A DNA stretch of 64,000 nt from an uncultured Thermoleophilia bacterium (GCA_963708325.1 OY970203.1:2172642-2236641); one strand, 5' to 3'; positions 1-22,273 are shown, counted from the first letter of the stretch. The notes: generated by a model from the letters alone, not told the origin. Program-made: numbers and translations.

Positions 1-415
1 GTGATCCAGCAGCGCAGATCGCTTCCACCTGCCGGCGTAGCTTGGGAATGTCTTCATCGCGAAGCGCCGGGTTGATCTTCTTGCCGACCTCGCGCAGCTT
101 TCGCTCGTACTCGTCGAAGAGCGGGGCTGAGCCGATCGCGACCCAGTCGTCGGGCGTTCCGTGGGGAAGCAGCTCTTCCAGAGCCGCCTTCCGATCGGCC
201 GCGAGCGCTCTGCGGTCCTTCGCCCGATCGAGGCCCATGACGCGCCCCCCGGAGTCCTCGGCCTGCTTGGCGAGGTCATCAATCTCGAGCTGACCATGCT
301 CGACCTCGTATGAGACCGCCCCATACGCCAAGAGCACGAAAAACTTGCGCGTGAGCCCCCCAGGGCTCAACGTGGCTGGGAGGGACACACTCGTATCGAC
401 GACGACGAAAGGCAT
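1..415 (-). CDS. PIN-domain protein, putative toxin (partial; the 3' end runs off the window)
   Basis: Reverse-strand frame starts at an ATG (complement of 413-415) and is still open at base 1, so it is absent from the ORF track. It begins MPFVVVDTSVSLPA, the beta-strand plus Asp opening typical of PIN nucleases. It lies 43 nt downstream of an HTH gene on the same strand. Confidence 0.55.
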   Translation of the reverse strand, partial: MPFVVVDTSVSLPATLSPGGLTRKFFVLLAYGAVSYEVEHGQLEIDDLAKQAEDSGGRVMGLDRAKDRRALAADRKAALEELLPHGTPDDWVAIGSAPLFDEYERKLREVGKKINPALRDEDIPKLRRQVEAICAAGS

Positions 416-458
416 GTGGCCACGCAGCGTACGAGCGCGTGCCGATGTTTCAGTCGGA

Positions 459-722
459 CTATGTCGCTGCCGAGCGGATCTGCTCTTCGGTGACTCCCTG
501 GTAGCGCTCGTCGAGCTCCTTGAGCTCCTTCGCCAGGTCATAGTTCCCGCGGAGCGAAGCGAGTAGCGCGCCCTGCGGGATCCGATATCCGCCGCTCGGC
601 AACTCGACATAGGGAATTCGCTCCGCCTCAATCCAGCGGCGGATGGTCCTATCGCTCACGCTAAGCAGGCTTGCAGCCTGGGCGACAGTCAGCAGCTGAG
701 GTTGCGCGGCAGTGATCGCCAT
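459..722 (-). CDS. Excisionase/MerR-family helix-turn-helix DNA-binding protein (putative antitoxin or regulator)
   Basis: 87 aa. LLTVAQAASLLSVSDRTIRRWIEAERIPYVELPSGGYRIP is the classic excisionase-type HTH signature. It sits upstream of the PIN gene. Confidence 0.75.
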   Translation of the reverse strand: MAITAAQPQLLTVAQAASLLSVSDRTIRRWIEAERIPYVELPSGGYRIPQGALLASLRGNYDLAKELKELDERYQGVTEEQIRSAAT

Positions 723-829
723 AGGTGCTCCAGTCTGGGGAACAGTATCGGCATATCCAGCATCTAAGTCAAGTCGGACAGAATGGACATTTTGTGGATA
801 TCATGGTCGATGGTATACCAGAACGGCCT

Positions 830-936
830 TTTCGACCGTCGGGCTAGCTGTCGAAAGCCCGCCTTGACAGTATCCAGCGCGTCTGTCAGCATTAGACGCA
901 TTCCGGTATGACATCTCTACAAACACACATAGGAGG
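830..936 (+). promoter_or_regulatory. Candidate promoter/operator and RBS of the Ubl-E2-JAB-E1 operon
   Basis: Lies in an AT-richer 220-bp divergent intergenic region. Elements seen: TTGACA at 864-869; inverted repeat TGACAG(865-870)/CTGTCA(883-888) overlapping it; a second inverted repeat TTTCGAC(830-836)/GTCGAAA(850-856); AGGAGG at 931-936, 6 nt before the ATG at 943. Confidence 0.35.
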
Positions 937-942
937 CCGCTG

Positions 943-1419
943 ATGCCCAAGGTTCTCGTCCATAGCGAGGGGTCGGCCGAAGTAGCCCTGCACGATCTCG
1001 GTCCTGAGGAGACTGCCGCCGACCTGATCGGCTCGGTCAATGTGGAGCTCGAGGACTACGCCGTCTGGGTCGGTGAGGAGGACGCCCCCGTCGATCCTGA
1101 TACGACCCTCGCCGCGCTCGACGCTGTCACCGATGGGGCGGAGATCACGGTCGCCCGTAAGGGCGAGATCCGCGTCACCGTGACCTACAACGGCGACAAG
1201 GAGCGCGACTTCCAGCCCCAGCAGAAGGTCCGCCGCGTCTTCGAGTGGGCAGTCGGCAAGGACGGGTTCAACATCCCCGGCGACCAGCGCCCGGAGCACG
1301 AGCTCGCGGTAGCGGGCCACGAGGAGGCGGCAGACCCGAAGGCGCCGGTGAGCTTCTACGCCGATGCCGAGCGCAAAGTGACGTTCATCCTCCGCCGCAA
1401 GGATGGGTTCCAGGGTTGA
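943..1419 (+). CDS. bilA: Ubiquitin-like protein with tandem beta-grasp (multiubiquitin / ISG15-like), BilA-like
   Basis: 158 aa, made of two consecutive halves of about 75-80 aa. The ORF ends ...RRKDGFQG-stop, leaving an exposed C-terminal Gly. It has a strong RBS and is the first gene of the coupled Ubl-E2-JAB-E1 unit. Confidence 0.7.
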   Translation: MPKVLVHSEGSAEVALHDLGPEETAADLIGSVNVELEDYAVWVGEEDAPVDPDTTLAALDAVTDGAEITVARKGEIRVTVTYNGDKERDFQPQQKVRRVFEWAVGKDGFNIPGDQRPEHELAVAGHEEAADPKAPVSFYADAERKVTFILRRKDGFQG

Positions 1420-1916
1420 GCGAGCAGCCGGAGAAGGACATCGCCCGCAGGCACTCCGAGCGTCGGCTCCGCGACGATCTCGCAGCGGCGCCGGTGCAGG
1501 TCGGCGTCCTGCGCGGGCAGTGGCGGATCGAGCGGCTCGAGTGGCCCTACCTCCATGTGACCGTGGCCGCCTCGGAGCGCGCAACGCGGGAGCTGGCCCT
1601 CGGGCTGCGCGTCGACGTGAGTGACTACCCGTCCGTGCCGACCGCCTCGCCCTGGGACATCGACGCGGACTGCCTGCTGCCCGGCGAGCGCCGGCCGACT
1701 GGGGGGCGTGCCACGATGGCTTTCCGCGCCGACTGGGAGGAGGGCCGCGCCCTTTATCTCCCGGTCGACCGGGTCGCGCTGACCGGGCACCCGGACTGGC
1801 CGCGCCAGTACGCCCGGCATACGTGGGATCCCGAGCGCGGCATCGTGGTGCTTCTCACCCTGGTCTACGAGATCCTCAACGAGGCCGACGATGCGGCTGC
1901 CATGGAAGCCGCCTGA
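1416..1916 (+). CDS. bilB: E2-like ubiquitin-conjugating enzyme, BilB-like
   Basis: The TTG start at 1416 overlaps the bilA stop (TTGA); the track's 1245 start would overlap bilA by 175 nt. Features: N-terminal helix RRHSERRLRDDLAAAP, a YPSVP motif, and a single Cys in SPWDIDADCLLPG. An alternative GTG start lies at 1494. Confidence 0.65.
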   Translation: MSEQPEKDIARRHSERRLRDDLAAAPVQVGVLRGQWRIERLEWPYLHVTVAASERATRELALGLRVDVSDYPSVPTASPWDIDADCLLPGERRPTGGRATMAFRADWEEGRALYLPVDRVALTGHPDWPRQYARHTWDPERGIVVLLTLVYEILNEADDAAAMEAA

Positions 1917-2373
1917 GCGCCTGCTGATCACTCCCGCCCTCTGGACGCGGCTGATCGCCGAGCTCGCAGAGCGCGGGGAGGGGCGCCGCGAGTCCGGCGC
2001 TTTCTTGCTCGGACGCCCCGGCGCCCGCCGCATCGAGGAGGCCCTCTACTTCGACGACCTCGACCCGCGCTCGCTGAAGGGCAGCATCCACCTCCGCGGC
2101 CCAGCCTTCTCTAGGCTCTGGGAGCACTGCTCGAGCCACGGACTGCGGGCACTCGCCGACGTTCACACACATCCCGGCCCGTGGGTCGCCCAGAGTCCGA
2201 CCGACCGTCGCTACCCGCTCGTCGCCCAGCGCGGGCACGTTGCGCTGATCGTGCCGCGGTTCGCACTGGACGGCGCCGCACCGAGCCGGATCGGCTTTCA
2301 CCGCTACGACGGCGAGTCGGGCTGGACCTCCTTCTTCGGCCGTGCGGCCGCCCGCCGCCTCCGCTTGAGATGA
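1891..2373 (+). CDS. bilC: JAB/MPN (JAMM) metallopeptidase, deubiquitinase-like, BilC-like
   Basis: Complete JAMM signature: Glu in RRESGAFLLG, then VHTHPGPWVAQSPTD (H-x-H-x7-S-x2-D). It overlaps the E2 gene by 26 nt. Confidence 0.85.
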   Translation: MRLPWKPPERLLITPALWTRLIAELAERGEGRRESGAFLLGRPGARRIEEALYFDDLDPRSLKGSIHLRGPAFSRLWEHCSSHGLRALADVHTHPGPWVAQSPTDRRYPLVAQRGHVALIVPRFALDGAAPSRIGFHRYDGESGWTSFFGRAAARRLRLR

Positions 2374-3761
2374 CCGTCGCGCACAACAGCCCGGTGGGCG
2401 GCGCCGACCGGCTTGCGAAGCTCTTCGTCGACCTGCAGGAGGAGCCCGACCAGGACGCCGCCGCGGAGCGCCTGCGCCGGACGCCGGTGCAGTTGGTGAT
2501 CGGCCGCGACGTCCCGGCCTCGGAGACGTTGCAGGTCGTGGCCGTCGCAGTGGTCGCCACCGGGAGCCGCGCGTTCCCCGCCGGATTGAACGTTGTGCTC
2601 GCCGGCGATGGGCCCATCCGGCTCGGCCGGGCTACCGGCTCGCTTTCCAGGATCTTGATCCGCGAGGGCGCGACGCTGGGGTCGCTCGATCTCGCGTTGC
2701 CCACGGTCGTTGTCGGCGACCCCGGCGAGGAAGTCGCGTCCGACCTCGAACGCTCGGAACTCGTCCTGCGCGCCGTCCCGCGGCGCTGGGCCGGCGGCGT
2801 AGTGCCGCTCGCGACGGAGGCGCCCCGGGTGGCGTCCGGTCAAATCGGCGCCGCGCTGGCCGGCGGCCTCGCCATCAGCGAGCTCTTCCATTCGATCCAC
2901 GAACTGCTGCCTCTCGCCGGCCGCCGGACGAGCGGCTTCTCGCTCTGGGATCCGAAGGTGGACTGGAGCGCTCCGGAGGCGATCGGGCCGCAGCTCCAGC
3001 TGCTGCCAAGCGAGCTCTGGCTCCTCGGTCTGGGCCATCTCGGGCAGGCGCTGGCCTGGCTGCTGCGGTTCCTCCCGTGGTCGGAGCCGGAGAAGGCGAG
3101 TGTCTACCTCCAGGACGACGACATCGCCAAGGAGGAGAACCTCACCACCTCCATACTCACCTCGACGGATCAGCTCCGTCGGCAGAAGACCAGGGTCGTG
3201 GCCGACGCGTTGGAGGATGTGGGTATGAGAACCCGCCTCGTCGAGCGCCGCTTCGTGGCTGGGCAGGCTCGGCAGCCGGGGGAGCCGGCGTGTGCGATCG
3301 CCGGCTTCGACACGCCACAGGCTCGCCAGTCGCTGGACGACGGTGGATGGTCGCACCTGATCGACATGGGGATCGGCGCTGGGGCGCACAGCTTCACCCA
3401 GCTAATCGTCCATCGGCTTGGCGGGCGGCGCAGCTCCCGCGAGATCTTCGAGATCCGGCCCGATGACCGCGCCCAGCGCCTCGTCGAGAACGTGCCCGCC
3501 TATCGAGCTCGCGCCGAGGAAGACGGCGATCCCTGCGGGGCCCTGGAGGTGGCAGGCGAGGCGGTCGGCACCGCCTTTGTCGGCTTGGTCACCGCTGCGG
3601 TCTCGCTGGCCGAGGTGCTCCGGCCGCTCCACGAGGGCTTTTCCTCGGAGCTTGTCGTCGCCGACCTACGCGAGCCCGCGGACCTCGAGCTCGTCGTCCG
3701 GGAGGGCGAGCCGGCGGGCGTCGCCGCGGTGACTCCGGCGCGGGCGCCGCGCGAGGCATAG
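2370..3761 (+). CDS. bilD: E1-like ThiF-family adenylyltransferase, BilD-like
   Basis: The ATG at 2370 overlaps the JAB stop (ATGA); the track's 2181 start is an upstream extension. Features: Rossmann motif LLGLGHLGQALAWLL, then YLQDDDIAKEENL and RRQKTRV as in ThiF/MoeB/E1. The N-terminal ~190 aa has no nucleotide-binding motif. Confidence 0.75.
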   Translation: MTVAHNSPVGGADRLAKLFVDLQEEPDQDAAAERLRRTPVQLVIGRDVPASETLQVVAVAVVATGSRAFPAGLNVVLAGDGPIRLGRATGSLSRILIREGATLGSLDLALPTVVVGDPGEEVASDLERSELVLRAVPRRWAGGVVPLATEAPRVASGQIGAALAGGLAISELFHSIHELLPLAGRRTSGFSLWDPKVDWSAPEAIGPQLQLLPSELWLLGLGHLGQALAWLLRFLPWSEPEKASVYLQDDDIAKEENLTTSILTSTDQLRRQKTRVVADALEDVGMRTRLVERRFVAGQARQPGEPACAIAGFDTPQARQSLDDGGWSHLIDMGIGAGAHSFTQLIVHRLGGRRSSREIFEIRPDDRAQRLVENVPAYRARAEEDGDPCGALEVAGEAVGTAFVGLVTAAVSLAEVLRPLHEGFSSELVVADLREPADLELVVREGEPAGVAAVTPARAPREA

Positions 3762-3801
3762 GAGCTGGCCGAATGGACGATGGCGACGCCTCCGAGCTAC
3801 C

Positions 3802-4197
3802 ATGCATAATCTTGACAGCGTGCCTGACGCTTCCTCCCATGCGTTGGCGCAGTTCTCCGCGGTCGCGCAGCGCGCCCTCGGGGAGGCTCTACGCCAAGCG
3901 CGCACCGAGCGCGATCTGACCCAGGCGGAGGTCGCTGGGCGAGCGCGTATCTCGCGCGGCTCGGTGGCCAACATAGAGCGCGGTGAGCAGAGCGTCTCCA
4001 TCGCCCTGCTCCTGCGCCTCGCCGCCGCTATCGGCGTCGATGGGGCGGCCTTGGTCAATGAGCTGCCGCGCCCTGACCTCGAGGCGGTCGCCGCCGAGCT
4101 GCCAGAGAGCCTCCGCGAGCAGGTCGAGGACTTCGACGAGCGCCAGACCGCCTGGATCGCGAGCGTCGTCGGTACCACGGAAAAGGAGCCAGCGTGA
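3802..4197 (+). CDS. XRE-family helix-turn-helix transcriptional regulator
   Basis: 131 aa. LTQAEVAGRARISRGSVANIERGEQSVSIALLLRLAAAIGV is a Cro/CI-type HTH. It lies 40 nt downstream of the E1 gene and overlaps the next gene. Confidence 0.85.
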   Translation: MHNLDSVPDASSHALAQFSAVAQRALGEALRQARTERDLTQAEVAGRARISRGSVANIERGEQSVSIALLLRLAAAIGVDGAALVNELPRPDLEAVAAELPESLREQVEDFDERQTAWIASVVGTTEKEPA

Positions 4198-4742
4198 GCA
4201 GCTACAAGCAGGAGCAGGCCGAGCAGGCCGCGACCGAGCTGCTCGCGGAGTTCGGCTTCGAAGAGCCGCCGATCGACGTCGAGGAAGTCGCGAAGAGGCT
4301 TGGCGCGCACATCGAGCGCCGGCCGCACAGCCCCGAGATTTCCGGTCTGCTGTACCGCGACCCCGACGCCGACGGAGAGCGCATCGTGATCGGCGTGAAC
4401 GACGACGACGCTTCGGTGCGTCAGCGTTTCACAATCGCGCACGAGCTCGGCCACCTCCGGCTCAACCACGACGAGCAGCTCTTCGTTGACCATGACCTGC
4501 GCGTCAACCTGCGCGCTCCGAAGCTGCACAGCCATGGCGGCGTCGACGAGCGCCAGGCGAACTGGTTTGCCGCCGCGGTGCTGATGCCCGAGGGCATGGT
4601 GCACCGCATCGCCACCGAGCTCTCGGAGGGCCGACGCCCCTCCGATGAAACCTTGATCTCACTGGTGGCCGAACGATTCGCCGTAAGCCGACAAGCAATG
4701 GGCTACCGGCTGCTTAACCTCGGGCTGCTCAGCGGGCTATAG
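4194..4742 (+). CDS. ImmA/IrrE-family zinc metallopeptidase
   Basis: 182 aa. HEXXH motif in FTIAHELGHLRLNH, followed by ANWFAAAVLMP, as in ImmA/IrrE. The GTG start overlaps the XRE stop (GTGA). Confidence 0.8.
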   Translation: MSSYKQEQAEQAATELLAEFGFEEPPIDVEEVAKRLGAHIERRPHSPEISGLLYRDPDADGERIVIGVNDDDASVRQRFTIAHELGHLRLNHDEQLFVDHDLRVNLRAPKLHSHGGVDERQANWFAAAVLMPEGMVHRIATELSEGRRPSDETLISLVAERFAVSRQAMGYRLLNLGLLSGL

Positions 4743-4809
4743 GCCGTCGGAGGGCGGGTTTGCTGGACGATCGACGGAAGCGCTTCCGTGAAACCTCAGC
4801 CTCCCGGCG

Positions 4810-5076
4810 CTACATCGCTCCGCCCTGCCGCGTGGCACGGACCAGGGCGATGCGATCGGCTTCGAGCACCGTGAAGCGCCCGGTCGAGCCGGACCCCTCG
4901 GCGCGGGTCGTGCCGACTGTCTGATCCGAGTAGATGGCAACGACCGACCGCCACGCGCCATGCGCGGTTCTCACTTCCACGCCATGGCCGGACTGGATCA
5001 GAGCTCGGATACGGGCCAGAGTTCCAGCACTGCCGGCCCGCTCCTGCGCGTACGAGCGATCGCGCGTTTCTCCCAC
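4810..5076 (-). CDS. Hypothetical protein downstream of res
   Basis: 88-aa ORF on the same strand, 53 nt after the res stop. No recognisable motif, and coding status is uncertain. Confidence 0.3.
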   Translation of the reverse strand: MGETRDRSYAQERAGSAGTLARIRALIQSGHGVEVRTAHGAWRSVVAIYSDQTVGTTRAEGSGSTGRFTVLEADRIALVRATRQGGAM

Positions 5077-5129
5077 ATGGACATCAAGCCCGGAGGGGCG
5101 ACCGTTCGCCCCCTTAACACGCGTCGTCG

Positions 5130-7637
5130 CTAGGCGAGCGCGCCCTGAAGCCCGGACACGAACCCAGCCAACTCCCCGGCCCGCACGGCGTCGAAGAAGC
5201 CGTCGTAGTCGCTCGGGCTCAAGAAGTGGAACTGGTAGCGGCGGTCCGCTCCCTCCGCCTCCAGGTACCGGTTCACGACCTCGAAGTGGTCACGCGCCGC
5301 CTCGAGCTTGCCCACGTTGATCGGCGAGTCGTCGCTGTCCGCCTTCGTTTCAACGACGACTACCTCGTCCTTCTCCGCCGGCCAGATGAAGAAGTCGGGG
5401 TTGAACTCGCCGGCCTTGCGCTTTGACTCGGGGGTCTTCTTGTACGAGAACTCGATCGTGTAGAAGCCGGTATCGGGCGCCTTCACCCACGACCGGATGG
5501 TCTCGGCGTTTTCCTTGTCCAGCAGAGCCGAGACGAACGCCTGCTCGGGATGATGGGAGGTGAGGACGAGGTTGACCGGGGACTTGAAGAGGTACGAGTT
5601 CGAGACCTTGATTAGCCAGGTCGGGACCGTGATCTCCTCGGCCTTCCTGAGCGCCGCCGCGTCGTCCTCAGTCCCGAGCTTCGCGCTCTCCTCGTCGTAG
5701 AAGAGCCCGAGATGCGATGTGAGTCCCGAGATCCGCCCCTTGACCGGGCGCATCTCCGCTGTGTTCACGATGTCGAGGCCGATGGGCTTGCGCTTGAGCT
5801 CGGCGCCGGGACGCTTTGTCTTCTGCTGGAGAGAGCCGAAGGCCGAGAGGATCAGCTGCCGATTCTCCTGCGTCACTTCGGTGCCGTCGAGCTTGAGGCG
5901 CTTGAGCGCATCCACGATGAGCCGTTCGACGCGCTTCTTCGGGTAGGCGGCTGCGAGCTTGGTGCCCAGCCGCTTGTCGGCGTCGCGCAGGCGCTCACGC
6001 ACGTCCGCGACGACGTCTGAGACCGGATAGCGCTTGTGGACGACCCGGGTCGTCAGGTCGACGCGCCCGGACCCAGTTGCCGAGACGAACGTCGTCGTCT
6101 CATCGTGGTCCCGCTGCGGCCGCAGCTTGATCCTCTCGATGTCAACCGGCTTCTCGACCTTCCTGGCCTTCATCCCGGTTGGAACGGCGTCGAACTCCAG
6201 GTTGTGAAGCTCAAAGTGGGGCGCGTCGCGGCCATCCGTCGGGCGCTGAGAGATCGTGGTCTCGACATCGAGGACCTCGGCAACGAGCTCTTCGATCTCG
6301 GGGCCCCAGCGCTCGTGGTTGAAGACGTAGACGATCGGCTGTTCGGCAACGCTGGGCGGCCGGCGCAGCCCCCGACCGAGGACCTGCGAGATCAGCAGCT
6401 TCGAGTTGAAGGCCCGTTTCTCGTGCGGGTAGATCTGGAAGACGTTGGCGACGTCCCAGCCCTCGCTGAGCATGGCGACCGAGACGATCCACTCCGCCGG
6501 GTTGTCGAGCGCGTCGACCGACTTGAGCTTTACGAGGTTCGACTTGTGCTCGTCCGAGGAGGTGACCACCAGAACGCGGGCGTCTGCCTCTTCCTTCCCG
6601 CCCTTGAGCCGCTCTGTCAGAAACTCGACCAGCGCCGCCGCGAGCTCGTTCGCGGCCTTGATGCTCTGCGTCACCGCAATCGTCAGCGGCTTCATGCCGG
6701 CATGTTTGTGCGCCTTGCGGTTCTTCTCGTGCTGGGCAAGGAGCTTCTGAAAGCGCTCCTCGTCAGTCGAGGAGTCGTCCTTGTCGAGGTAGAAGACCTC
6801 CTTGACGAAAGCATCGTCGATCGCCTGGCGGATCGGGTAGCGGTAAACGACGTCGGAGAAGTAGTCGTTGCCCTGGTAGCAGGTCCCCGAGCCGCCGACG
6901 AGGTAGCGAAAGCCGTACTCCTCATCACCGAGGAACTCTCGCCAGGTCCTCCCCGTCGTGGAGTAGGCGTGGTGTACCTCGTCGGAGATCACAAGCGTTC
7001 GATCACCCCGGCCGACGAACGAGTCAGCGATCGAGGAGCTCGTGCGCTCGTAGGTGGCGTGGATGTTCTCGATGCAGATCTCGCCCTCCTTCACCGTCGA
7101 CATCGCGTCCACGATGTCGGGGATGCGAATGCCCTCCCGGTTGGGTAGCAAGTCACCGAGGTCGCTGTTGGCGACCAGCGCGTTGAACTTCTCTTTGAGA
7201 CCGTCCTCGATCGTCAGCGAGGGGCAGAGGACGAGGACGCGATCGACATGACCCTCGTTGAGGAGGATCCGGGCTATCGCGTGGTAGACGAAACTCTTGC
7301 CCGTAGCGGTGGCCATGTCAAGCGTGCAGGCAAGGCGGTCGCGGAATGGGAGCCGCTCGATCAGCCGGGCTGCGCTTGGATAGCGGCGCTGGAGGTCTGC
7401 TGATGTCTCGTAGGACGTCCGCGCGAGATCCTCGGTCGACTCGTACTCGCCGCCGCAGAGGAAGCGGACGGCGGTCTCGATCGCCTCTCGCTGGAAGGTG
7501 CGACCCCGTGTCACCTCCTCGATGAACTCGTCGTACTCGCTCAGGTCGAGACGCTTCGGATCGACTGTCTCCGAGACCTGGAGGACGAGCTGGTCGGCCG
7601 AGAACTGGTCGACCGAGAGCTTCGCCGAGAGCTTCAT
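5130..7637 (-). CDS. res: Type III restriction enzyme, Res subunit (SF2 helicase plus PD-ExK nuclease)
   Basis: 835 aa. Walker A-like [13 protein letters not shown]-box variant ISDEVHHAY, and a C-terminal PD...ExK (NPDFFIW...VVVVETKAD). The start overlaps the mod stop (ATGA). Confidence 0.85.
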
Positions 7638-9847
7638 GTCTTCGTCTTAGTCCGCCTGCTCTTCGGGGCGGCGGGCTTCGCCTTGCTAGCCCTCTTAGCC
7701 GTTCCTCGCTTGGTCGCCGCACCGGGTTTGCCGTCTCCGCTCGCGCCGCTTTTGGCGGGAGCGCGCCGTCGCGCCTTCCTCGGAGCCAGCTTGGCGGGCT
7801 CCACAACCTCTCGGCGCTCGTTCCCGTGCGTGTCCATGTAGATGACCAGGACCCGCTCGCCCGCGTGCGTGAGATCGAGTTCAAACGCCCAAGACGCCTT
7901 CTGAAGCTCGTCGCCGAACCGGTGCTCGCGCAAGCGGAACACGTCGTCGTCGTAATCCGAATCCGCCATGACCATCGCCAGATCGCCCCGGCCGGCGTCC
8001 CCCAGGTCGGCGAAGTCATCGGGATCGAGCCCGCCGCGTCGGAACTCCGCCACCTCCGCCCGCAGCTTCCCGTCCTTGGTTGCGTAGCCGACCTTGACCT
8101 CGGGCGGCTCCACGAAATCGAAGCCGAAGGAGTCGATCGCGTCGTTCAGCTCGTCGAAAGAGCCGGGTTGCGCGAGCAAATCGAAGTCGCGACCGTGCAG
8201 GGCCTCGATCACCGAGTACGGCACCCGCAGGATGAAGTACGTGTTCTCGTCCAGCGTGATCACGTCCTCGAACAGAGAGGGATCGCACGCGGAAACCGGC
8301 GCGATCACGTACACCTCGCCGCTGGCCTTCGCCTTGATGCGCTCGTGCAGAGACTCGATGTAGGAGCGCCCCATCAGGGCGTCGGTCTCGTTGAAGGGGA
8401 ACAGATGCACCGGGCCGCCCTTTCTGATCCCGACCATCGGCACGGCCCCCAACCTGTGGGAATCTGGGCGACAGCCGAACAGCTCCAGGACGAAGGCCTC
8501 GTACTTCTCAAACGGGAGTTCCTCCAATAGGGCGTTGTCGTAAAGGCCCGCCGAGCAGAGCTCGAACGGCCGGAGGGTCGGCAGCACCGGTTGCTTGCCA
8601 TTGCCCTCGGTCATACCAAGGAGGCGCCGCTGCGTCGTGTAGACGGCCAGCTTCCCGCAGTCAACGGCCATCCATCGCCGGCCCAGCCGCTCGGCCACAA
8701 CTGCGGTGGTCCCCGATCCAGAGAAGCAATCCAGGATCAGGTCGCCCTCGGTCGATCCGGATTCGATGATCCGCTCGAGCAGTGCCTCGGGCTTTTGCGT
8801 CGGGAAGCCTTCGCGCTCTGCAGCCTGCGCTCCAATTGGCCCGATGTCCGTCCAAATGTCCTGAAGCGAGACGCCCGGCTGCTCATCGAGGTATCGCTTC
8901 TGGCGGGGGACCGCTCCCGGTTTCGCCTGAACGACCTCCCCCGAGGCGTAGAGCTCCTCCATCCTCTTCTTCGTGAATCGCCAGTAGCGAGTAACTCCCC
9001 GGAACTCGTACCGTGGGTTGCCCTTGCTCGCCCCGCCCGGGGCCGTCAGGTCTCCAAGGGCGTACCGGCGCCCGGTTGCCTCCTCGACGTGCTGGTAGTA
9101 CGAGTCGATATGGCTCTCCTCGTACGGAGTAAAGATCGGGTTCCACACCCACTGGTCGCCCTTGGAGTAGAAGAGGATCGCGTCGTGGATCCGGCCGTGC
9201 TGCTGCCTGCCCTGCTTTGTGTCGGAGTGGGCGCTTGAGCGCTTCCAGATGATCTCGGTGCGGAAGTTCTGCGGCCCGAAGATCTCGTCGAGCAGAACCT
9301 TCATGTAGTGGACCTTGTTCGTGTCGAGGTGTAGGTACAGCGCCCCGTTGTCGGCCAGCAGCTCGTGGATGAAGACGAGGCGCTTGCGGAGGAACTCGAC
9401 GAACTCGGCTCCCTCGACCTTGTCTCGGTACGCCGGCTGGTTCTTGCTGCCGCGAAACTCGCGCTTGGTCGCGAACGGCGGGTCGATGTAGCAGAGGCGC
9501 ACCCCGGATGTACCGTCGGCGTTCAGGAGCTCGCCGCGCTCCTTCATCTCAAGGAGCGTCTTCAGGACCTGGAGGTTGTCGCCGGAGACGAGCTTGTTCG
9601 TCCAACCGTCCTCGCCGTCGGAGCCGAAGCGCTTCAAGGTCTGGAGCGGCACCGCCATGGTGTCCGCGAGGATCGAGCTGCGGCTCTGCTTTCCGGAGTA
9701 GGCAAGCTCAGCCTCTTTCGCCTCCTGGAAGAGGCGCTGGCGCCAGTGCTCATCGAGGAGCTCGCCGCTACGCAGTCGCTCCGCGATCGCGTCGATCTCG
9801 TGCTCGGTGAGGGCGGGTCGCAGGCCTTCTGAATCACCGCTTGCCAC
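7634..9847 (-). CDS. mod: Type III R-M DNA methyltransferase, Mod subunit (beta-class N6A/N4C)
   Basis: 737 aa with a GTG start. Catalytic CYIDPPF motif lies upstream of the AdoMet motif [21 protein letters not shown] (beta-class order). It carries a C-terminal Lys/Arg/Ala/Pro-rich tail. Confidence 0.85.
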
Positions 9848-10150
9848 GGACTCAGGCTAACCCACCCTTCCGCGTCAGAACGACCCGGGGCCGTCCCTCC
9901 CAGCGCTTGGGTCCGCGGCCCCTCCTGAGCTCGCCGCATCCGCTGCTCATCGCCCGTAAACCGGCCGCCAGGGCCGGTGAGTCGGCTCGCCTGTCGCCAA
10001 TCGCGCAAAGGAGCCACGGATCCGCGGAGACAGGAAGCGCCGCTTTGCATGGAAAGCGGGCATGGCCTGCGCCCCAGACCGCGATAGAGCGGTTCCGCGA
10101 GCATAATGCCGCGTCGCGCGTCCACCGCGTCGCTGCCTAAGCTCGGCGCT

Positions 10151-11404
10151 ATGGATTTCTCCGCAACGATCGCGATCGCCGTTCTCGCGCTCCTGTTCAC
10201 CGTCGGGTCGTTCTGGTGGCTGAACGCGCGGCGCGGTTCGCTCGCCGCCGTTGTGCCGCCGGTCTACGCGTTCGTGGAGGGCTTTCGACTGCGGTTTCCC
10301 GTCGCGGTCTTCAACGACGGCGCGGCCCCGCTGCTCATCATCGATCTGAGGGTCGCGATCTCGGGCGCTGGGACGTACGAGTGGCAGACCACGCGCACAT
10401 CGGTCATGCCGAAAGAGGACGACGGACACGAATTCGCGGTGCCGTTCTCGGTCAAGGGCCGGGACACCGCGACGGTCATCGCCGAGTTCGGCGGGGACTA
10501 CGACTGGCTGCCAAAGGCCGGCGCGTCGCACGAGATTCGCCTCGAGGCGCTGATTCATGACGACGCAGCTTGGACCGAGCTTGTGACCTTCACGTGGTGG
10601 GCACCGCCGTCCGACCAACTCATGCGCAACTACATCGCTCATCGAAACGAGCCGCCATCACCATCCGCTGCTCACGAGGGCGGAGGCATGAGTGACCATC
10701 TCGGCATCCGTTTCAAGATCGGCGACGCGTTCCCCGCCGACGATCAACTGGCGCGCTGGATGACGATCTGTGCGATGGCACTCAACGACCTGCTCTACGT
10801 CAATCGCCTGCTCATGCCGCGCCTCCAGGAAGAAGTCGAGTCCGAGGACTACGAGAACGTCTACCTCGCGCGCGTCGCCGGCGCTCACCTATTCGAGATC
10901 GCCAAGTTCCTCGGCCATGCGCATCGGCGTATCCCGGCGATCGGCAAGTTCGTCGAGGGACTCGATGCTGACCAGAAGGCGGCCTACGAGAAGGTCACCG
11001 CCGTCGGGCCGAACGGGTCGAGCGATTTTGCGAAGCACCTCGGGGTTGCTCGCGGACAGGTCTTTCACTACTCAGAGCTAATCCCGCAGAACGAAATTCG
11101 GGAAGACCTAAGGGCCGCGATGACCGAGCACGCCGACTCGAGGGGCGAGATCCGCGACGAGGGCGCCCCGATCACCGGGTTCCGCGCGCGCTTCGCTGAC
11201 GATATTGCGGTCGAGCTGACCTTCGGCGATCGCCCGCTCGATAAGCGCGAGTACGTCACCCAGGTCAGCGAGCACATCGCTGCGTATCTGGAGTTTGCGT
11301 TCGCCGCAATCGCGGCCTACGTCCAGCGTCTGCCGCGCGAGGCTTGGGAATACATCGAGTTCGAGACACCGTCGCGTTCGCCTCGTGACTCGGGATCCGC
11401 CTGA
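10151..11404 (+). CDS. Hypothetical membrane-anchored protein (N-terminal TM helix plus beta-rich module, C-terminal helical module)
   Basis: The ATG at 10151 gives MDFSATIAIAVLALLFTVGSFWWL (a TM helix). An internal ATG at 10688 is preceded by GGCGGAGGC, so the C-terminal 238 aa may also be made separately. No family recognised. Confidence 0.5.
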   Translation: MDFSATIAIAVLALLFTVGSFWWLNARRGSLAAVVPPVYAFVEGFRLRFPVAVFNDGAAPLLIIDLRVAISGAGTYEWQTTRTSVMPKEDDGHEFAVPFSVKGRDTATVIAEFGGDYDWLPKAGASHEIRLEALIHDDAAWTELVTFTWWAPPSDQLMRNYIAHRNEPPSPSAAHEGGGMSDHLGIRFKIGDAFPADDQLARWMTICAMALNDLLYVNRLLMPRLQEEVESEDYENVYLARVAGAHLFEIAKFLGHAHRRIPAIGKFVEGLDADQKAAYEKVTAVGPNGSSDFAKHLGVARGQVFHYSELIPQNEIREDLRAAMTEHADSRGEIRDEGAPITGFRARFADDIAVELTFGDRPLDKREYVTQVSEHIAAYLEFAFAAIAAYVQRLPREAWEYIEFETPSRSPRDSGSA

Positions 11405-11425
11405 CCGCCTCTAACAATCTGAGCC

Positions 11426-11956
11426 ATGGAGACCCAACGGTCGATAGGAGACTTCTCCGAGGATGAGCTACGCGACTACGCGTGCGAGCACGTCCTTTAT
11501 GAGATCACGCATTTCATCCGCGCGGCCCAAGCCATTGAGGCGGCGCGGGCTGGGCTCTTTCCGATGAACTTTGCGATCGAGGTCTTTGCCCTCCACCTCC
11601 GTAACCTGCTCGACTTCTTCGCCCCACGCAGCGCGCGCCCGACCGACGCGTGCGCCCGGCACTTCCACACCGACTGGGATGAGCCTGAGCTAAACCTCTA
11701 TCTCCGCGAAGCGCGGTGGATGGCCGACAAGCACATCGCGCATCTCACAACGGATCGGACCGCCGACGTTGACCTCAAGACGTGGGCTGTCGAGCCGATC
11801 GTTCGGTCGCTCATCCCGGTCATCGAGCGTTTCGCTGAGGGCGCGGATCTCGTCTGCGACAGCTTCCGTGACCACGTAAGGGACCGCTTGGGGGAACTCC
11901 CGCCTGCCCGTGATCCGACCGAGCTGCCTCCCGGGCCTGACTTCGCGCCGGGGTAG
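11426..11956 (+). CDS. Hypothetical helical protein
   Basis: 176 aa, 21 nt after the previous gene. It contains REARWMADKHIAHLT, which fits a loose Rx4-6H pattern. HEPN-like status is unproven. Confidence 0.5.
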   Translation: METQRSIGDFSEDELRDYACEHVLYEITHFIRAAQAIEAARAGLFPMNFAIEVFALHLRNLLDFFAPRSARPTDACARHFHTDWDEPELNLYLREARWMADKHIAHLTTDRTADVDLKTWAVEPIVRSLIPVIERFAEGADLVCDSFRDHVRDRLGELPPARDPTELPPGPDFAPG

Positions 11957-12061
11957 GAATCAGCGAACTCGTCGCCGCGCAGGACCCCCGCTGCACTCGG
12001 TTCGATCGCTCGCGTAGCGCGTGGACTCGATGAGCCCCCACTTAGGTCAAGCCATCCGCCG

Positions 12062-13761
12062 CTATTCGCGGCGCTCAACCTTGAGCAGCCGCAGGTAGCA
12101 CCCCGTCTGAAGGAGCAGTGCCGCGTCACCGCGACCGATCTCGTCGCACAGGCCGTGGGCGATGACATTGCGCAGGTTCAGACCGAGCGAGTCGGCCAGA
12201 AGGTTGACCAGATATGCGTGCCAACCCCGTGCGCCACGAGCGAAGACGGGACGGAGCTGCTCGAGGATCCAGCCGAGTGGACGTTCTCGACCGGGGTTTG
12301 CACCAGATGGCTCGAGATAGGTGGGGATCCCCAGGTGTCGCGCGAGCTCGCGCAGGATCGCTTCGATCCGGGGAGCGATCACGTGTGCGGCGTCGTCGGG
12401 CTCGCCACCCCAGTAGTGCTCGAAGCCACGTGCGATGCGATCGGCAATCTCGGGGCGGATCAGGGTCGTGGTGAACAGTTCACGTATGGCCTCTCGGCTC
12501 CCACTGCCAGAGTGCGCCTCTCGGATTTCGTCCAGGACGTTGGCGGCCAGCAGCGACCAAAGGCGTGCTGCATTCGCGCGCTGTTGTGCGCGGACCCACT
12601 GTTGGCGGCGTTCATCGGTGTTGGCGAGGAAGAGCACGCTTGATTCGTCCGAGCTCATGACCACCTGCGTGACGAGAAACTGCAACGGGGCCGCCTGGCG
12701 AAGGCCTTCAATCCGCTCGTCGAGGTCCTCGGGTTCGCCACCGGGCGGACCGGCGACCCCAAACCGCGTGAACGCCCCCTCAAGGTCGTCGTCACCAACG
12801 ATGCGATCGATCATCTGCCGCATAGCCTCGGTTGGGATCTCGACCTGGGCGGAGACGGTCTTCAGGTCGAAGTCCTCGGGATTCATCGCCTGAAGCTCAC
12901 GCCGCAGCTCCTCGATAAGACTGGCTTCGAGCTCGTGTCTGGTCGCTAGCGCGAGAGCACGCTGCAAGTGGACCGCTCGGATCATTCCCTCGGTCTCGCC
13001 TGCCGCAGTTCGCCACCTGTCGACCTGCTCCCGGCGCAGGTCCTTGCGACGCTCCGGGGCTCTCCCGATCTTGAGCTCGACGATCGTCTCCGCGATGTGC
13101 GGGTCGTCGCCGTAGCGGGCCTCGGTGGCGTCGATCAGCTCGTCGAGTTCATCCGGTGGACCCTCGAGCCGCGCCAGCGGTGCTAGAAGGCCTAGCGCAA
13201 CACCCGGCCCTCCGTCCTCAGCGGCTAGGTCCTCGCGAACCATCTCGACGCTACGGCGGACGATTTGCCCCATCCGGTCCTCGTCGCGCAAATCGGCCCC
13301 AGCTCGAGAGCCCGGACCAGGCCGACGACGCGTTCGATCGCCGGCCAATCGGGGTTTGCACTCAGCTCGACGTACGCATCGACAGCCGCGCGAGCGTGTA
13401 GGTCCGGGCGGTCGCCAATCCTTCGCTCCCAGAGCAGGTCCTCCAGACGAGAGCTGGCGATCGGATCGTCGAGCGCCCCCGCGGCGGCGATCCATGCGTC
13501 GACGTCCGCAGTCACAACGTCAGCCAACGGCGGGGGGAACTGTCCCTGGTCGGTGACGATCATCGGAGCGAATGGGCCCTCCTCAGATCGCCGCTCCTCG
13601 TCGTGGACCAGCATGTAGCCGAAGGCGAAGACGAGGGGCCGGTACTGCTCCTGGGTGTCCTGCGGGGCGAGCTCGCGCAGTTTCGCGTCCACAGCGTGCC
13701 AGCTGTCGGCCTCGGTCACGGCTTGGCGAAGGTGCTCAAGGACTTTTGGTTCGAGACTCAT
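12062..13761 (-). pseudogene. HEPN-motif (RNxxxH, DUF4209-like) protein gene split by a frameshift
   Basis: The N-terminal ORF 13225-13761 and the C-terminal ORF ending at 12062 join in sense (...VRALELG / ADLRDEDRMGQIV...) if one base is added or removed in the GGCCCC run at 13295-13300. The C-terminus carries LNLRNVIAHG. Confidence 0.55.
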
Positions 13762-13856
13762 GAACCTCAGATGGTTAGCGGGGCCTGCGGCTAGAACCCG
13801 CTGGTCCTGATCCTGCTCCCGAGCCGATCAGCCGCAGCTGCCTCCAGACTAAGCGC

Positions 13857-14645
13857 GTGCGGATTCTCGACCTAGACCTCGACTTCTTTCAGGAGGGCAG
13901 AGCGACTCACATTTCATTCGATGAAGTCCGTCGTGATCCAGACGAATACCCGCCCTGGCTGCTGGAGGACGCCCTCGCGTTTGTGGAGACCCAGTGCTTG
14001 GTGACCGACAAGCTGCCGGGCCTCGCGGTCGAGCACCACGCTGAGCTGTTCCATCACTTCGGGGAATGGATCGAGAACGGGACGCTCACGTCATCATTCG
14101 AGCTCGTCCACGTCGATGCTCACGCCGACCTCGGTCTCGGCGATTCGGGATACGACTACATCCTCGCCGAGCTCGCTTTCGCTCCCCTCGCCGAGCGTTA
14201 CAAGGCGCTGAAGGAGGGTGTTCCCGCCTTGCCCGAGGCGTTCTGCGAGCGGGGCGCCGACGCGCTCAACGACGCCAACTGGCTGGCGTTCGCAGTCGCC
14301 TGCGGCTGGCTCTCAGAGTTGACTTACGTGTTCAACGGCATCGGTCCCGCGCCAGGTGACCTGCTGCGCTACCTGATGAAGGACTTCGACGTCGAATCGG
14401 ATCACCTCCAAGTCCACGCTATAGAGAGAGGAGAGCTTCGGGACTCGCTGATGCGCATCGGTCCGCCGCGGGTCGAGCGAGCAGATCCCGCCATCCCCTT
14501 CGCGGCGATCCCCTGGCGCGACTACCAGGCGACGCGGCCGTTCGATGTCGTCTGCCTCACGCGCTCACCGGCCTACACGTCTTCGACAGCTGATCCCATC
14601 TTCGACACGATTCGAGAGCGCTTCATTGACGAGCGGCGTTTCTAG
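13857..14645 (+). CDS. Hypothetical protein, UPF0489/arginase-fold-like
   Basis: 262 aa. It opens with RILDLDLDFF and has an HVDAHADLG metal-site-like motif. The family assignment is from memory only. Confidence 0.45.
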   Translation: MRILDLDLDFFQEGRATHISFDEVRRDPDEYPPWLLEDALAFVETQCLVTDKLPGLAVEHHAELFHHFGEWIENGTLTSSFELVHVDAHADLGLGDSGYDYILAELAFAPLAERYKALKEGVPALPEAFCERGADALNDANWLAFAVACGWLSELTYVFNGIGPAPGDLLRYLMKDFDVESDHLQVHAIERGELRDSLMRIGPPRVERADPAIPFAAIPWRDYQATRPFDVVCLTRSPAYTSSTADPIFDTIRERFIDERRF

Positions 14646-14783: not shown

Positions 14784-15917
14784 TCAGACACCAGCGGCTC
14801 TGACGCGCGGCTTGATGAGTGCGGCCACCTGCGACGCCGCTTCCTCATGCATCGCCGGGATCGCATGCGAGTACACGTCGAGCGTGATCGAGATCGTTGC
14901 GTGGCCGAGGCGCTCCTGCACGACCTTCGGGTGCACTCCGGCCTGGAGCGCCAGCGTGGCGTGGGTGTGACGGAGGTCGTGGAGGCGGATTTTCGGCAGG
15001 CGCGCCGATGCGAGGTGGCGCGCGAACGCTCGCGACAAGCTCCGAGGCCAGATCGGTGTTCCGTCCTCGCGGCAGAACACGAAATCATCGTCCTGGTAGG
15101 TGGGACCAAGCGCACGCCGCTCGGTTTGCTGGGCGCGCCGGTGCTCCCGAAGCGCGGCCACCGTGCCCGGGTCGAGCGCGACGGTACGCCGGCCGCGCTC
15201 GCTCTTCGTCTCCGAGACGACCCGGTTCCCGACGAGCGTCTGCACAATCATCGCCCGCCCGGCGTCGAGGTCCACGTCCCGCCAGCGGAGCCCGAGGGCC
15301 TCTCCGCGCCGGCATCCCGTCATCGCCAGGAACCGCCAGCACCCTGCGAGTCGGTCGTTGCGGACGCTCTCCAGGAAGGCTTGGAGCTCGGCTGCGGACC
15401 ACGTCCGCATCACGCGCTTTCGAGTGGCGCGGAGCGACGGGGGATCGGCGGCATCGGCCGGGCTCCGCGCGAGCCGATTCCACTTCACGGCATCGGAGAG
15501 CGCGCGGCGGAGGATCGCGTGTATGTACCGGACGGTTCGCGGCGAGAGGCACGCGCTCAGGTCGGCGTACATCGAGTTGAGCATCGCGGGGGTCAGGGCC
15601 TGGAGCCGCACCGATCCGAGACGGGGGAGGACGTGATTGCGAACGTTCGCGGCGTAGGAATCGAACGTGAGCGGCCGCAGGCTGGACCGGACGGCGGGGA
15701 GCCACTCCCCTTCGAGGAACGAGCGGACCGTCAGCTTCGATGGCGCGACGTACTGGCCGGTCGAGAGCTGGCCGAGGATCTCCGTCAGCGCCTCGCTGGC
15801 CTCGCGCTTGGTCCTGAACCCGGAGTGCCACTTCTGGCGCCGTCGGCCCTGCTCGTCGCGGCCGATGTCGACGACGACCGCCCAGGTGCTGCCCCGCTTC
15901 CTGATGTGGCCCCTCAT
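14784..15917 (-). CDS. Tyrosine-type site-specific integrase
   Basis: 377 aa. N-terminal RKRGSTWAVVVD arm-binding-type opening, Arg box MTGCRRGEALGLRW, HxxR in RLHDLRHTHATL, and the Tyr region LGHATISITLDVYSH. Confidence 0.9.
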   Translation of the reverse strand: MRGHIRKRGSTWAVVVDIGRDEQGRRRQKWHSGFRTKREASEALTEILGQLSTGQYVAPSKLTVRSFLEGEWLPAVRSSLRPLTFDSYAANVRNHVLPRLGSVRLQALTPAMLNSMYADLSACLSPRTVRYIHAILRRALSDAVKWNRLARSPADAADPPSLRATRKRVMRTWSAAELQAFLESVRNDRLAGCWRFLAMTGCRRGEALGLRWRDVDLDAGRAMIVQTLVGNRVVSETKSERGRRTVALDPGTVAALREHRRAQQTERRALGPTYQDDDFVFCREDGTPIWPRSLSRAFARHLASARLPKIRLHDLRHTHATLALQAGVHPKVVQERLGHATISITLDVYSHAIPAMHEEAASQVAALIKPRVRAAGV

Positions 15918-16432
15918 GCCGCTCCTCCGTCCTGGACTGCAAGTGCAGCGCGGGTACGCCGGATTGCGGGAAGCCCGATCGGGCGCAGTGCCGCTCGCTC
16001 GGCGACCTGCGCGAGCGCCCGGCTGAGGCTCCGCGGATGGAGCGGCTCACCGCTCTCGCGGCAGACCACGAGGTCGTGGTCGCTGTAGTCGGAGCCCCAC
16101 TCGGATCGCTCGGCCTCTTGGCGCTCGCGGTGCTCGCAGAGAATCGCGACCGTGCCCGGGTGGAGGTCGACCGCGCGCACCCGGCGCGACGTCGACGGCG
16201 GCTTGATCGCTGTGTAGGGAACACCGACGACGGCGTTGCGAACGTCGATCCGCGCAGCGTCGAGATCGACGTCCGTCCAGCGCAGCGCGAGCAGCTCGCC
16301 GGTACGCAACCCGCCGAATGCGGCGAGGTGCCACGCTGCCTCGAGGCGCGTGCCGCGTATCTCCGCGAGAAACGCGGCGAGCTCGTCTGGCGTCCAGTGG
16401 TCGAGCCGACTCACCGCGGAGCCCCCAGCCAC
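15914..16432 (-). pseudogene. Truncated tyrosine integrase paralogue (catalytic-domain fragment)
   Basis: 172 aa, alignable by eye to residues ~170-335 of the neighbouring integrase (GGLRTGELLALRWTDVDLD, DLVVCRESGEPLHPRSLSRA). The HxxR region is degenerate (LPAIRRTRA) and there is no Tyr segment. The stop overlaps the intact integrase start (ATGA). Confidence 0.65.
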
Positions 16433-16974: not shown

Positions 16975-17310
16975 ACCCGGCGCGGTCCGGCGGAGATGCT
17001 CGAAGACTTTGCGCCCTGCGAAGCACGTCGCCAGGTAGCCGGTCTTGACGCTCCTGGCGCCTTCCGGGCGCTTGAGCAAGTCGACGTCAGCACCTTCGGC
17101 GAGTTCCGCACAATCAACGGTCTCGGCGTCTACTTCAGAGCTGCTTTCCGCACGGCGATCCGGTGTACGGCTGGATCGCTGAGTGGTGCTTGTCGCGCGA
17201 AGCGAGAGCGAGATCTGCACGCCGTATGCGCATGTCCAGGCCGCCATGCCCTCGCGGAGTGTCTCAACCCAAACGCGACCCAGCTATCGGATCAAACTAG
17301 AGTTGGCCAC

Positions 17311-19382: not shown

Positions 19383-19422
19383 GATGATGTCCGAGGACGC
19401 GAAGTTCGCGCTCGGTTATTAG
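19383..19422 (+). repeat. Direct repeat, copy A (imperfect hairpin core)
   Basis: GATGATGT + CCGAGGACGCGAAGTTCGCGCTCGG + TTATTAG. The 25-nt core is identical to 24578-24602 and folds as CCGAG-GA-CGCGA-AGT-TCGCG-CTCGG. Confidence 0.8.
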
Positions 19423-21606: not shown

Positions 21607-21673
21607 CTGGACGGCAACGGTGTGCGATGCCTCGTGAAGAGAACGTTTGGGCCGCCGCTCGTTTTCGCTCACG

Positions 21674-22174: not shown

Positions 22175-22273
22175 GGCTTCCTAATTCCATGGTCGAGCGG
22201 GACCCGCTAAGCACCCGCTAAGGACCCGCCTGGCTGCGTAGAGATTTCGCTAAATCCGCGCCGCGGCGCGGAT

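Follow-up and report, generated by a model that had tools for sequence, protein, structure and literature searches.

A Bil-type operon in an uncultured Thermoleophilia bacterium encodes a BilB protein with valine at the position of the E2 catalytic cysteine

Nowhere in bacteria is a counterpart of eukaryotic ubiquitination as clear as in Bil systems. Type I BilABCD operons are known from Collimonas sp. OK412 and other proteobacteria (Millman 2022, Hor 2023/2024), and in Collimonas the ubiquitin-like protein (Ubl) is conjugated to the central tail fibre of the phage and the system protects against phage; the Type I residues of that system are BilA G163, which is needed for defence, BilB C113, BilC D115, and BilD G219 and C385. 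Type II BilABCD, also referred to as CEHH or '6C', is represented by Ensifer aridi TW10 (Chambers 2023/2024; PDB 8tyz, 8tz0, and 8tyx), and the Bub (6E/DUF6527) pathways have been described in a preprint (Ye et al. 2024). The original Bil census recorded mainly Alphaproteobacteria, and one survey explicitly set the diversity of Type I Bil aside. Here, we analyzed a Bil locus in a stretch of 64,000 nucleotides (nt), hereafter the window, from an uncultured Thermoleophilia bacterium (GCA_963708325.1 OY970203.1:2172642-2236641). Homology places this locus in the Type I Bil lineage; one of the features that define that lineage, the catalytic cysteine of the E2 protein, is missing from it.

The original prediction, made from the sequence of the window, described four overlapping open reading frames (ORFs) for a Ubl, an E2, a JAB peptidase, and an E1, and read them as a Bil-type operon. 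Coordinates, junctions, and motif residues are all as it described (Table 1), with overlaps of TTGA at 1416-1419, of 26 nt at 1891-1916, and of ATGA at 2370-2373, and the third-codon-position G+C of 0.85 to 0.86 indicates that the four frames are coding. An independent gene caller picks the same four genes, and Logan contig L001 equals the window over 9491 nt. Each protein matches one PADLOC-DB model only, over nearly the full length of the profile (BilA, 4.6e-26, residues 3-158; BilB, 3.7e-47; BilC, 8.1e-55; BilD, 1.6e-118), and the gene order BilA-B-C-D is shared by about 75 of 80 related loci, whose phyla include Acidobacteriota, Chloroflexota, Actinomycetota, Proteobacteria, and Planctomycetota. 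In Pfam, BilB falls into DUF7665, now named 'BilB-like' (1.5e-40), and precomputed annotations place BilA_UBL_2 on BilA and BilD_N on BilD; the general models Prok-JAB (1.9e-4, BilC) and ThiF (2e-3, BilD) match weakly.

The PADLOC and Foldseek checks that the original prediction had called for bear out the identity as well, as the AlphaFold2 models of BilB and BilD rank the solved Bil E2 and E1 first. The BilB model (predicted local distance difference test score [pLDDT], 95.7) retrieves E. aridi BilB (8tz0_C/8tyz_C, probability 1.0) followed by Ubc2b/UbcH5, and the BilD model (pLDDT, 92.9) retrieves E. aridi BilD (8tyz_A/8tz0_A, E 6e-17) and next UBA7, UBA1, and UBA6, along its whole length. 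In a sequence search of Protein Data Bank (PDB) chains with the four proteins, BilC matched E. aridi BilC (8tyx_B, 2.1e-7), and besides this type II protein there were marginal ThiF matches only; a BilB profile matched no PDB chain. The closest BilD homologue from any source is 57% identical, and identity is at most 38% to any homologue in the representative genomes. Relatives of BilD on plasmids are all proteobacterial and less than 40% identical, and none was found in the phage collection. By gene content, order, and sequence, the operon is thus a BilABCD homologue. A sulfur-carrier role of the ThiS/MoaD type was considered and rejected in view of the E2-fold and JAMM partners and the Bil-specific profiles.

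It is BilB that departs from the Type I pattern. Across 79 aligned BilB homologues the family motif is LY(L/I)PCDR, with an invariant histidine eight residues after the cysteine; over this LY(L/I)PCDR...GH motif the window protein reads LYLPVDRVALTGH, with valine at residue 117 and the histidine at H125. The motif cysteine is the only cysteine common to all cysteine-bearing homologues and lies at residue 106 to 119 (C112 in Burkholderia seminalis), which fits the catalytic C113 of Collimonas BilB, and in the predicted structure Val117 directly precedes helix 119-124, the place of the catalytic cysteine in the UBC fold. We assigned the catalytic column through the family alignment, the Foldseek match, and this agreement in numbering with Collimonas C113; it cannot be mapped by sequence to C138 of E. 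aridi BilB, as an hhalign comparison of the BilB alignment with that protein was not significant (Prob 2.9). The E2 cysteine and its adjacent histidine have been described as highly conserved across types I and II. Judged by its sequence, the BilB of the window lacks the catalytic cysteine that Type I Bil requires.

The sole cysteine of the window BilB, which also has a Y71-P72-x-x-P75 motif, is C86. The original prediction took this residue to be catalytic, an assignment that we have to withdraw: column 86 is variable, with A/T/S/R/Q in most homologues, and the catalytic column of the family is that of Val117. A Cys86Ala mutant would therefore probe the wrong residue. The copy had also been called unexplored on account of its taxon and context only; the real difference is mechanistic.

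Val117 is no sequencing error and is under selection, as indicated by an identical independent assembly, by the same GTC codon in the closest relative, locus L089 (BilB 81% identical), and by a ratio of nonsynonymous to synonymous substitution rates (dN/dS) of 0.125 for BilB between the two loci; the values for BilA and for the N terminus of BilC are 0.21 and 0.10. Among individual relatives, P0122 (81% identical) has Val117 together with a cysteine at the place of C86, P0123 (56% identical) has Val117 and not one cysteine at full length, P0124 also has valine, and the next relatives with Val117 carry E, A, or G at column 86.

The loss extends well beyond these proteins. An exhaustive search gave 303 BilB representatives at E <= 1e-3. 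Position 117 lacks cysteine in 37 of 120 profile-search representatives, which are clusters at 90% identity (C 83, W 23, V 9, F 4, Y 1), and in about 95 of the 151 representatives of 50%-identity clusters that are nearest to the window protein (C 52, Y 19, F 19, W 16, L 10, M 10, V 7, I 7); His125 is present in 120/120 and 138/145 sequences. The pooled 239 BilB-like proteins, from samples seeded with the window protein, divide into 124 with cysteine and 115 without (W35 F19 Y17 V14 L9 M8 I6), and 32 of the 115 have no cysteine anywhere. A compensating nucleophile was sought, and no other column exceeded 17% cysteine; nor did the pooled proteins contain a Ser/Thr column specific to the non-Cys group. 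Residues W36, P44, Y71, W80, P94, F103, W107, Y114, P116, D118, R119, H125, W128, and W137, are equally kept with and without the cysteine.

In a neighbour-joining tree of E1 proteins (unrooted-style, with a midpoint root), systems with a cysteine-less BilB occupy separate deep clades, which consist mostly of Solirubrobacterales, Acidimicrobiia, and other Actinomycetota metagenome-assembled genomes (MAGs), with some Chloroflexota. Cysteine is present in all 58 scorable proteobacterial, acidobacterial, and Dehalococcoidia-type loci except L047, where it is serine and the rest of the locus is almost identical to a cysteine-bearing one. As far as alignments and trees can tell, the window Bil belongs to a large, mostly actinobacterial branch that shares the loss of the E2 cysteine. 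A full-text search of the literature accessible to the analysis gave no mention of DUF7665 or of a cysteine-less BilB, and a report elsewhere is possible.

Two further features of the BilB family came to light. Residue 93, beside the invariant Pro94, is Trp in 81% of cysteine-bearing and Arg in 60% of cysteine-less BilB proteins; the window protein has Arg93. In addition, several proteins of 240 to 355 amino acids (aa), among them P0228, P0261, P0265, P0271, P0302, and P0364, have a C-terminal BilB-like domain, and P0228 also has BilA_UBL_2. Such proteins appear to be Ubl-E2 fusions reminiscent of BubAB, and they occur with and without the catalytic cysteine.

The partners of BilB retain their active residues. 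Gly158, the terminal residue of BilA, is invariant in 62/62 and 22/22 homologues, and the conserved glycine is kept wherever a BilA was recovered, with a two-residue tail following it in L082 and L087. Two beta-grasp domains in BilA are supported by its length, by the full-length profile match, and by weak matches to ISG15, whose chains make up nearly all top PDB matches of the BilA profile (best E 0.005). The JAMM residues of BilC (E34, H92-x-H94, S102, and D105) are invariant in 80 to 81 of 81 homologues. For BilD, an alignment of 31 homologues shows the loop GLGHLGQA (220-227) invariant in 31/31, along with D249, D251, K273, R293, D314, and Cys389; the last corresponds to Collimonas C385 and is kept at every locus, those with a cysteine-less BilB included. 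The model match and the invariant residues together give BilD the E1 layout of an inactive and an active adenylation domain and a catalytic cysteine on a helical insertion.

The end of BilA varies among relatives. Some homologues have 1 to 7 residues past the glycine (+E, +YR, +AAGGVA; L089 725-1204, L082 6574-7053, L018, L033, and L039) and, by analogy with type II Bil, would need trimming by BilC before activation. The window BilA stops exactly at Gly158 and has no tail.

Two regulatory genes follow bilD. The first product, a helix-turn-helix (HTH) protein, matches HTH_31 (3.4e-14) and HTH_3 (6.7e-13) in Pfam and capH in PADLOC (5.1e-10, profile positions 5-93 of 103), in keeping with an XRE HTH that has a C-terminal oligomerisation region; the second matches Peptidase_M78 (3e-20) and PADLOC capP (3e-28). 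Because the capP match covers only positions 3-153 of the 242 in the profile, the window peptidase is without the GAF domain of CapP/IrrE and is of the size of ImmA (for the domain layout of CapP, see Lau et al., preprint 10.1101/2022.04.27.489752). The pair lies directly 3' of bilD and in the same direction in 6/6 distinct loci of a sub-clade made up of the window, L082, L083/84, L085/86, L087/88, and L090 (BilD 45 to 57% identical), at a bilD-HTH spacing that ranges from a 4-nt overlap (L090) to 149 nt. M78 homologues in the other five cassettes match at E 1e-54 to 1e-63. The flanking genes of the six loci are unrelated, so that the linked regulator pair of the original prediction holds beyond the window despite differing flanks. 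The downstream pair is absent from all 80 distant loci, a few of which have an M78 gene upstream of bil, mostly on the opposite strand, a placement that is usual for CapH/CapP. A terminator scan of positions 1-5300 found none, the gap between bilD and the HTH gene included, and that gap holds no repeat, which makes a separate transcription unit for the pair unlikely. Positions 943-4742 of the window are a six-gene cassette of bilA-B-C-D, HTH, and M78 genes.

In the region upstream of bilA, an inverted repeat, TGACAG-N12-CTGTCA (865-888), overlaps a -35-like TTGACA (864-869); a further copy, ACAGTATC/TATCCAGC, lies at 742-761, and an AGGAGG ribosome-binding site (931-936) stands six bases ahead of the bilA ATG. 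A similar repeat, CTGTCA-N11-TGACAG, spans the TTGACA that precedes bilA in L082. From its sequence and place, the repeat at 865-888 is a plausible candidate operator for the downstream HTH protein, which would then auto-repress the whole operon. A consensus promoter scan returned weak sites only, at 775-804 (+) and 772-744 (-).

We put at roughly 55% the probability that the six-gene cassette belongs to a deep, mostly actinobacterial branch of the Type I Bil (bacterial ISG15-like) family and discharges the E1~Ubl thioester onto target lysines on a non-catalytic BilB resembling a ubiquitin E2 variant (UEV). The HTH protein would repress a single promoter upstream of bilA, and hence its own gene too, and stress or phage infection would activate the peptidase, leading to cleavage of the repressor as in CapH/CapP and ImmR/ImmA. 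BilD, as its intact invariant motifs and structural match suggest, would adenylate Gly158 of BilA and load BilA on Cys389 as a thioester. With valine where the catalytic cysteine of the family sits, BilB cannot accept a Ubl thioester at that place; it has the E2 fold, would bind E1, and most likely acts as a non-covalent, UEV-like platform for E1 docking and target recognition. The target lysine would then attack the E1~BilA thioester directly, helped by a BilB pocket of His125, Asp118, and Arg119, and BilC with its JAMM motif would remove or edit conjugates. The expected role is anti-phage defence through the tagging of a phage structural protein, by analogy with Collimonas.

UEV and RWD proteins are non-catalytic UBC folds, and TtuB/TtuC provides a case of E2-independent Ubl conjugation. 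The solved type II complex has the cysteine of E1 brought round to within 2 Å of that of E2, which suggests that the pocket of E2 receives the E1~Ubl thioester. For the cysteine-less branch, an attack by the target lysine at this place is the most economical reading. Moreover, E2s have been proposed as the specificity factor in Bil, and E2-independent conjugation is known for SAMP/UbaA (PMC11354881).

Several points weigh against the platform model. Collimonas BilB C113A loses defence and E. aridi BilB C138A loses conjugates; since the E2 cysteine is required in both studied systems, direct transfer from E1 to lysine is not a known behaviour of the family. Cysteine is present at position 117 in some close relatives, namely L085 and P0125-P0127 (the latter 49 to 52% identical), and a midpoint-rooted neighbour-joining tree does not settle loss against gain of the residue. 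The ratio of 115 to 124 given above is no census, given how the samples were seeded. As for regulation, the consensus promoter scan did not flag the -35-like box at 864-869, and the repressor/protease steps are taken over by analogy from systems that include CapP, whose GAF domain the window peptidase does not have.

It is also conceivable, if unlikely, that BilB is a covalent carrier after all and uses an oxygen nucleophile, as in Bub, with Thr123 of the T123-G124-H125 triplet as the candidate. The triplet resembles the Ser333-x-His335 pair of BubB. An early prediction held the E2-like proteins of Bub to be inactive (Iyer et al. 2006, PMC1779556), and subsequent work showed them to function via oxyesters with a Ser/His pair (10.1101/2024.11.21.623953). 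His125 is invariant, Ser or Thr stands one to two residues before the histidine in 37% of cysteine-less against 19% of cysteine-bearing BilB proteins, and 17 of the 115 non-Cys proteins have Tyr at position 117. However, no Ser/Thr/Tyr column is conserved specifically in the cysteine-less group, other close relatives read D/E/N-G-H at the triplet, and E1 keeps its catalytic cysteine, unlike in Bub. The oxyester route is also weakened by the mostly hydrophobic residues at position 117 (W/F/V/L/M/I) and by V-G-H in the 81%-identical P0122.

A second alternative, which we regard as quite improbable, accepts conjugation and doubts the role in phage defence: the system could serve the integrative element that carries it, with the HTH/M78 pair as a switch of the ImmR/ImmA type and BilA as a tag for host or element proteins. 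An excisionase-family gene is divergent from bilA in the window and in L089, tyrosine integrase genes lie further downstream, the peptidase is ImmA-like in size and has no GAF domain, and ImmR/ImmA, which control ICEBs1 excision, offer a precedent for such a switch. On the other hand, the six-gene cassette occurs in unrelated neighbourhoods with no adjoining excisionase or integrase gene (L082, L085, L087, and L090), defence genes are frequent in its vicinity, the pair shares its transcription with bil and not with the integrase, and homologous Bil systems are proven anti-phage systems.

Very improbable in our view is a canonical cascade with a relocated catalytic cysteine, in which the Ubl would pass from E1 Cys389 to E2 Cys86 and on to the target lysine. 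In canonical E2s the region after strand beta4 leads towards the active site, and the model places Cys86 in a long loop past beta4, five residues after the strand; it is the only cysteine of BilB, and P0122 shares it. Beyond the variability of column 86, also among relatives with Val117, the full-length P0123 has no cysteine to offer, nor do the 32 of 115 non-Cys proteins, and cysteine at or beside column 86 is sporadic and equally rare with and without the catalytic cysteine (5 versus 6 sequences). That the cassette is a decaying or inactive Bil remnant with a dead E2 is hardly credible, although loss of the E2 cysteine abolishes function in both studied systems, as the four frames are intact and translationally coupled, dN/dS against L089 is 0.10 to 0.21 for BilA, BilB, and BilC, the other catalytic residues are invariant, and cysteine-less BilB proteins are numerous and diverse, keep their core, and co-diverge with E1.

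A bolder generalization of the platform model, to which we give slightly less than an even chance, is that such systems form a third, widespread Bil type, mainly of Actinomycetota and Chloroflexota, in which the E2 is a conserved pseudo-enzyme that serves as a scaffold and the E1 cysteine hands the Ubl directly to target lysines. If true, this would be a natural two-step ubiquitination pathway with a thioester on E1 only, and that pathway could predate catalytic E2s as an ancestral stage or have arisen from them by repeated reversion.

The surroundings of the cassette are listed in Table 1. The divergent gene upstream of bilA matches HTH_17 (9.7e-12) and MerR (7.8e-8) in Pfam and the NCBIfam excisionase model TIGR01764 (2.8e-10), and its counterpart upstream of bilA in L089 has 93% aa identity and a dN/dS of 0.07; it is context or part of a carrying mobile element and not a part of the core system. 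Four ORFs in 10106-14645 may be further defence genes; two of them, 10106-11404 and 11426-11956, have no match in Pfam, NCBIfam, or PADLOC. A 639-aa ORF at 16996-18915 has no family match, and there is no tRNA gene in the whole window. G+C is 0.63 to 0.68 in the first ~25 kb and 0.67 to 0.74, mostly above 0.70, beyond, with a parallel step at third codon positions (about 0.81 to 0.88, then 0.93 to 0.97), which fits a horizontally acquired island that runs past the left end of the window. The island context of the original prediction is supported: the operon lies in a lower-GC stretch beside Type III restriction-modification genes and integrases. In the window, the Type III genes and the PDC-S39-like gene provide a defence context; close to relatives of the cassette, this context consists of Mrr, SIR2, a deaminase, and a restriction-modification gene of the MmeI-like kind.

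Table 1. Cassette genes and neighbouring features, in window coordinates
Feature	Position	Strand	Details
bilA, Ubl	943-1419	+	158 aa; final residues GFQG-stop; ISG15-like two-domain size
bilB, E2/UBC fold	1416-1916	+	TTG start; 166 aa
bilC, JAB/JAMM metallopeptidase	1891-2373	+	160 aa; deconjugating or Ubl-processing enzyme
bilD, E1	2370-3761	+	463 aa
XRE-family HTH, repressor candidate (CapH/ImmR-like)	3802-4197	+	131 aa; 40 nt past bilD stop
M78/IrrE-type Zn metallopeptidase	4194-4742	+	182 aa; HELGH; start overlaps HTH stop (GTGA)
Control region, bilA and divergent HTH gene	723-942	+	sequence
Excisionase-family HTH gene	459-722	-	87 aa; divergent from bilA
Type III restriction-modification res	5130-7637	-	ResIII 2e-13; convergent with Bil cassette
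Type III restriction-modification mod	7634-9847	-	N6_N4_Mtase 2e-39; 4-nt overlap with res
PDC-S39-like ORF	12062-13495	-	1e-12; DUF4209 trace
UPF0489-matching ORF	13857-14645
Tyrosine integrase genes	14784-16432	-	full 377 aa, Arm-binding domain; second ORF of 172 aa, 4-nt overlap

Further along the window, a 34-nt direct repeat (94% identical; 19388-19421 and 24575-24608) brackets genes for a Kup K+ transporter, Usp, a KdpE-like regulator, and a KdpD-like kinase (19543-24366), and a DnaG-like primase gene (24665-25864) lies next to this block; the repeats could be the ends of a small inserted element. The KdpE-like protein clusters at >=90% identity with proteins of Solirubrobacterales MAGs and is the sole basis for the probable host order given below; most core proteins are singletons. 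A c-di-GMP-I-GGC riboswitch (28012-28086, minus strand; Rfam RF03167, 79 bits, E 4e-17) lies just upstream of a GHL15 glycosyl-hydrolase/fn3 gene (25949-28000), which holds an 18-nt G+C-rich tandem repeat at 26699-26842. Elsewhere, L090, whose BilB is cysteine-less, has a second, distant Bil-like operon at 3246-7331 beside its six-gene cassette. That operon encodes a 95-aa Ubl, a 148-aa protein of unknown kind, a JAB protein (BilC, 5e-9), and a 482-aa E1 (BilD, 2e-16), with its own divergent HTH gene and a 304-aa CapP-like peptidase, and Mrr and MmeI-like restriction genes are nearby.

To find a Bil system would by itself be ordinary, as PADLOC can call one, and what makes the locus interesting is its pseudo-E2 branch together with the six-gene arrangement. 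PADLOC Bil profiles ignore the state of the active site, and mechanisms predicted from them, or mutant designs such as Cys86Ala, would be wrong for this branch. A lineage with a cysteine-less E2 that keeps the E1 cysteine, the Ubl glycine, and the peptidase provides a handle on what the E2 fold contributes apart from the thioester, and on the origin of the E1-E2 relay. The cassette, moreover, places a repressor/protease switch at the 3' end of the operon that it presumably regulates.

Compared with Type I Bil, the window has the same four proteins in the same order, with a Ubl of two-domain size that ends in Gly, a JAMM peptidase, an E1 that combines an inactive with an active adenylation domain and has a catalytic cysteine, and an E2 fold with the histidine. 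It differs in the valine at the catalytic cysteine, in the added, co-transcribed HTH and M78 pair, and in its host, which is probably a member of Solirubrobacterales and not of Proteobacteria. With Type II it has the gene order in common, the E2 and E1 models rank Type II structures first, and some Type II operons also carry CapH/CapP. The two differ in the Ubl, as E. aridi BilA has one domain and about half the size of the window protein, in the CEHH cysteine, which the window E2 lacks, and in the regulators, which are downstream and co-directional in the window, whereas those of Type II are upstream and divergent in all but one case.

Like the window locus, Bub is a Ubl system of bacteria in which the E2-like protein does without a catalytic cysteine (that of Bub is functional), and it is often linked to CapH and CapP (31%). 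However, Bub replaces both cysteines (E1 Tyr370 and E2 Ser333/His335) and uses oxyesters, while the window keeps the E1 cysteine and has no conserved Ser/Thr nucleophile; in Bub the Ubl is fused to the E2 and the JAB protein to the E1, and a serine protease of the DUF6527 type is present, while the window has separate genes and its neighbour genes gave no match to DUF6527.

Eukaryotic UEV/RWD pseudo-E2s (Mms2/Uev1a and Tsg101) have a UBC fold without catalytic cysteine and act as non-covalent partners, and BilB shares that fold and that lack. UEVs pair with an active E2, unlike BilB, as no second E2 is encoded here, and a sequence relationship between them is undetectable. In archaeal SAMP/UbaA and Thermus TtuB/TtuC, an E1-like enzyme drives Ubl conjugation with no thioester on an E2, as proposed for the window, and in their case with no E2-fold partner. 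As for the regulators, the window peptidase has no GAF domain, unlike CapP, and the pair stands at the 3' end of the operon and not upstream and divergent; with CapH/CapP, ImmR/ImmA, and DdrO/IrrE it shares the combination of an XRE-family HTH protein and an M78 HExxH peptidase, encoded by overlapping genes beside an immune operon.

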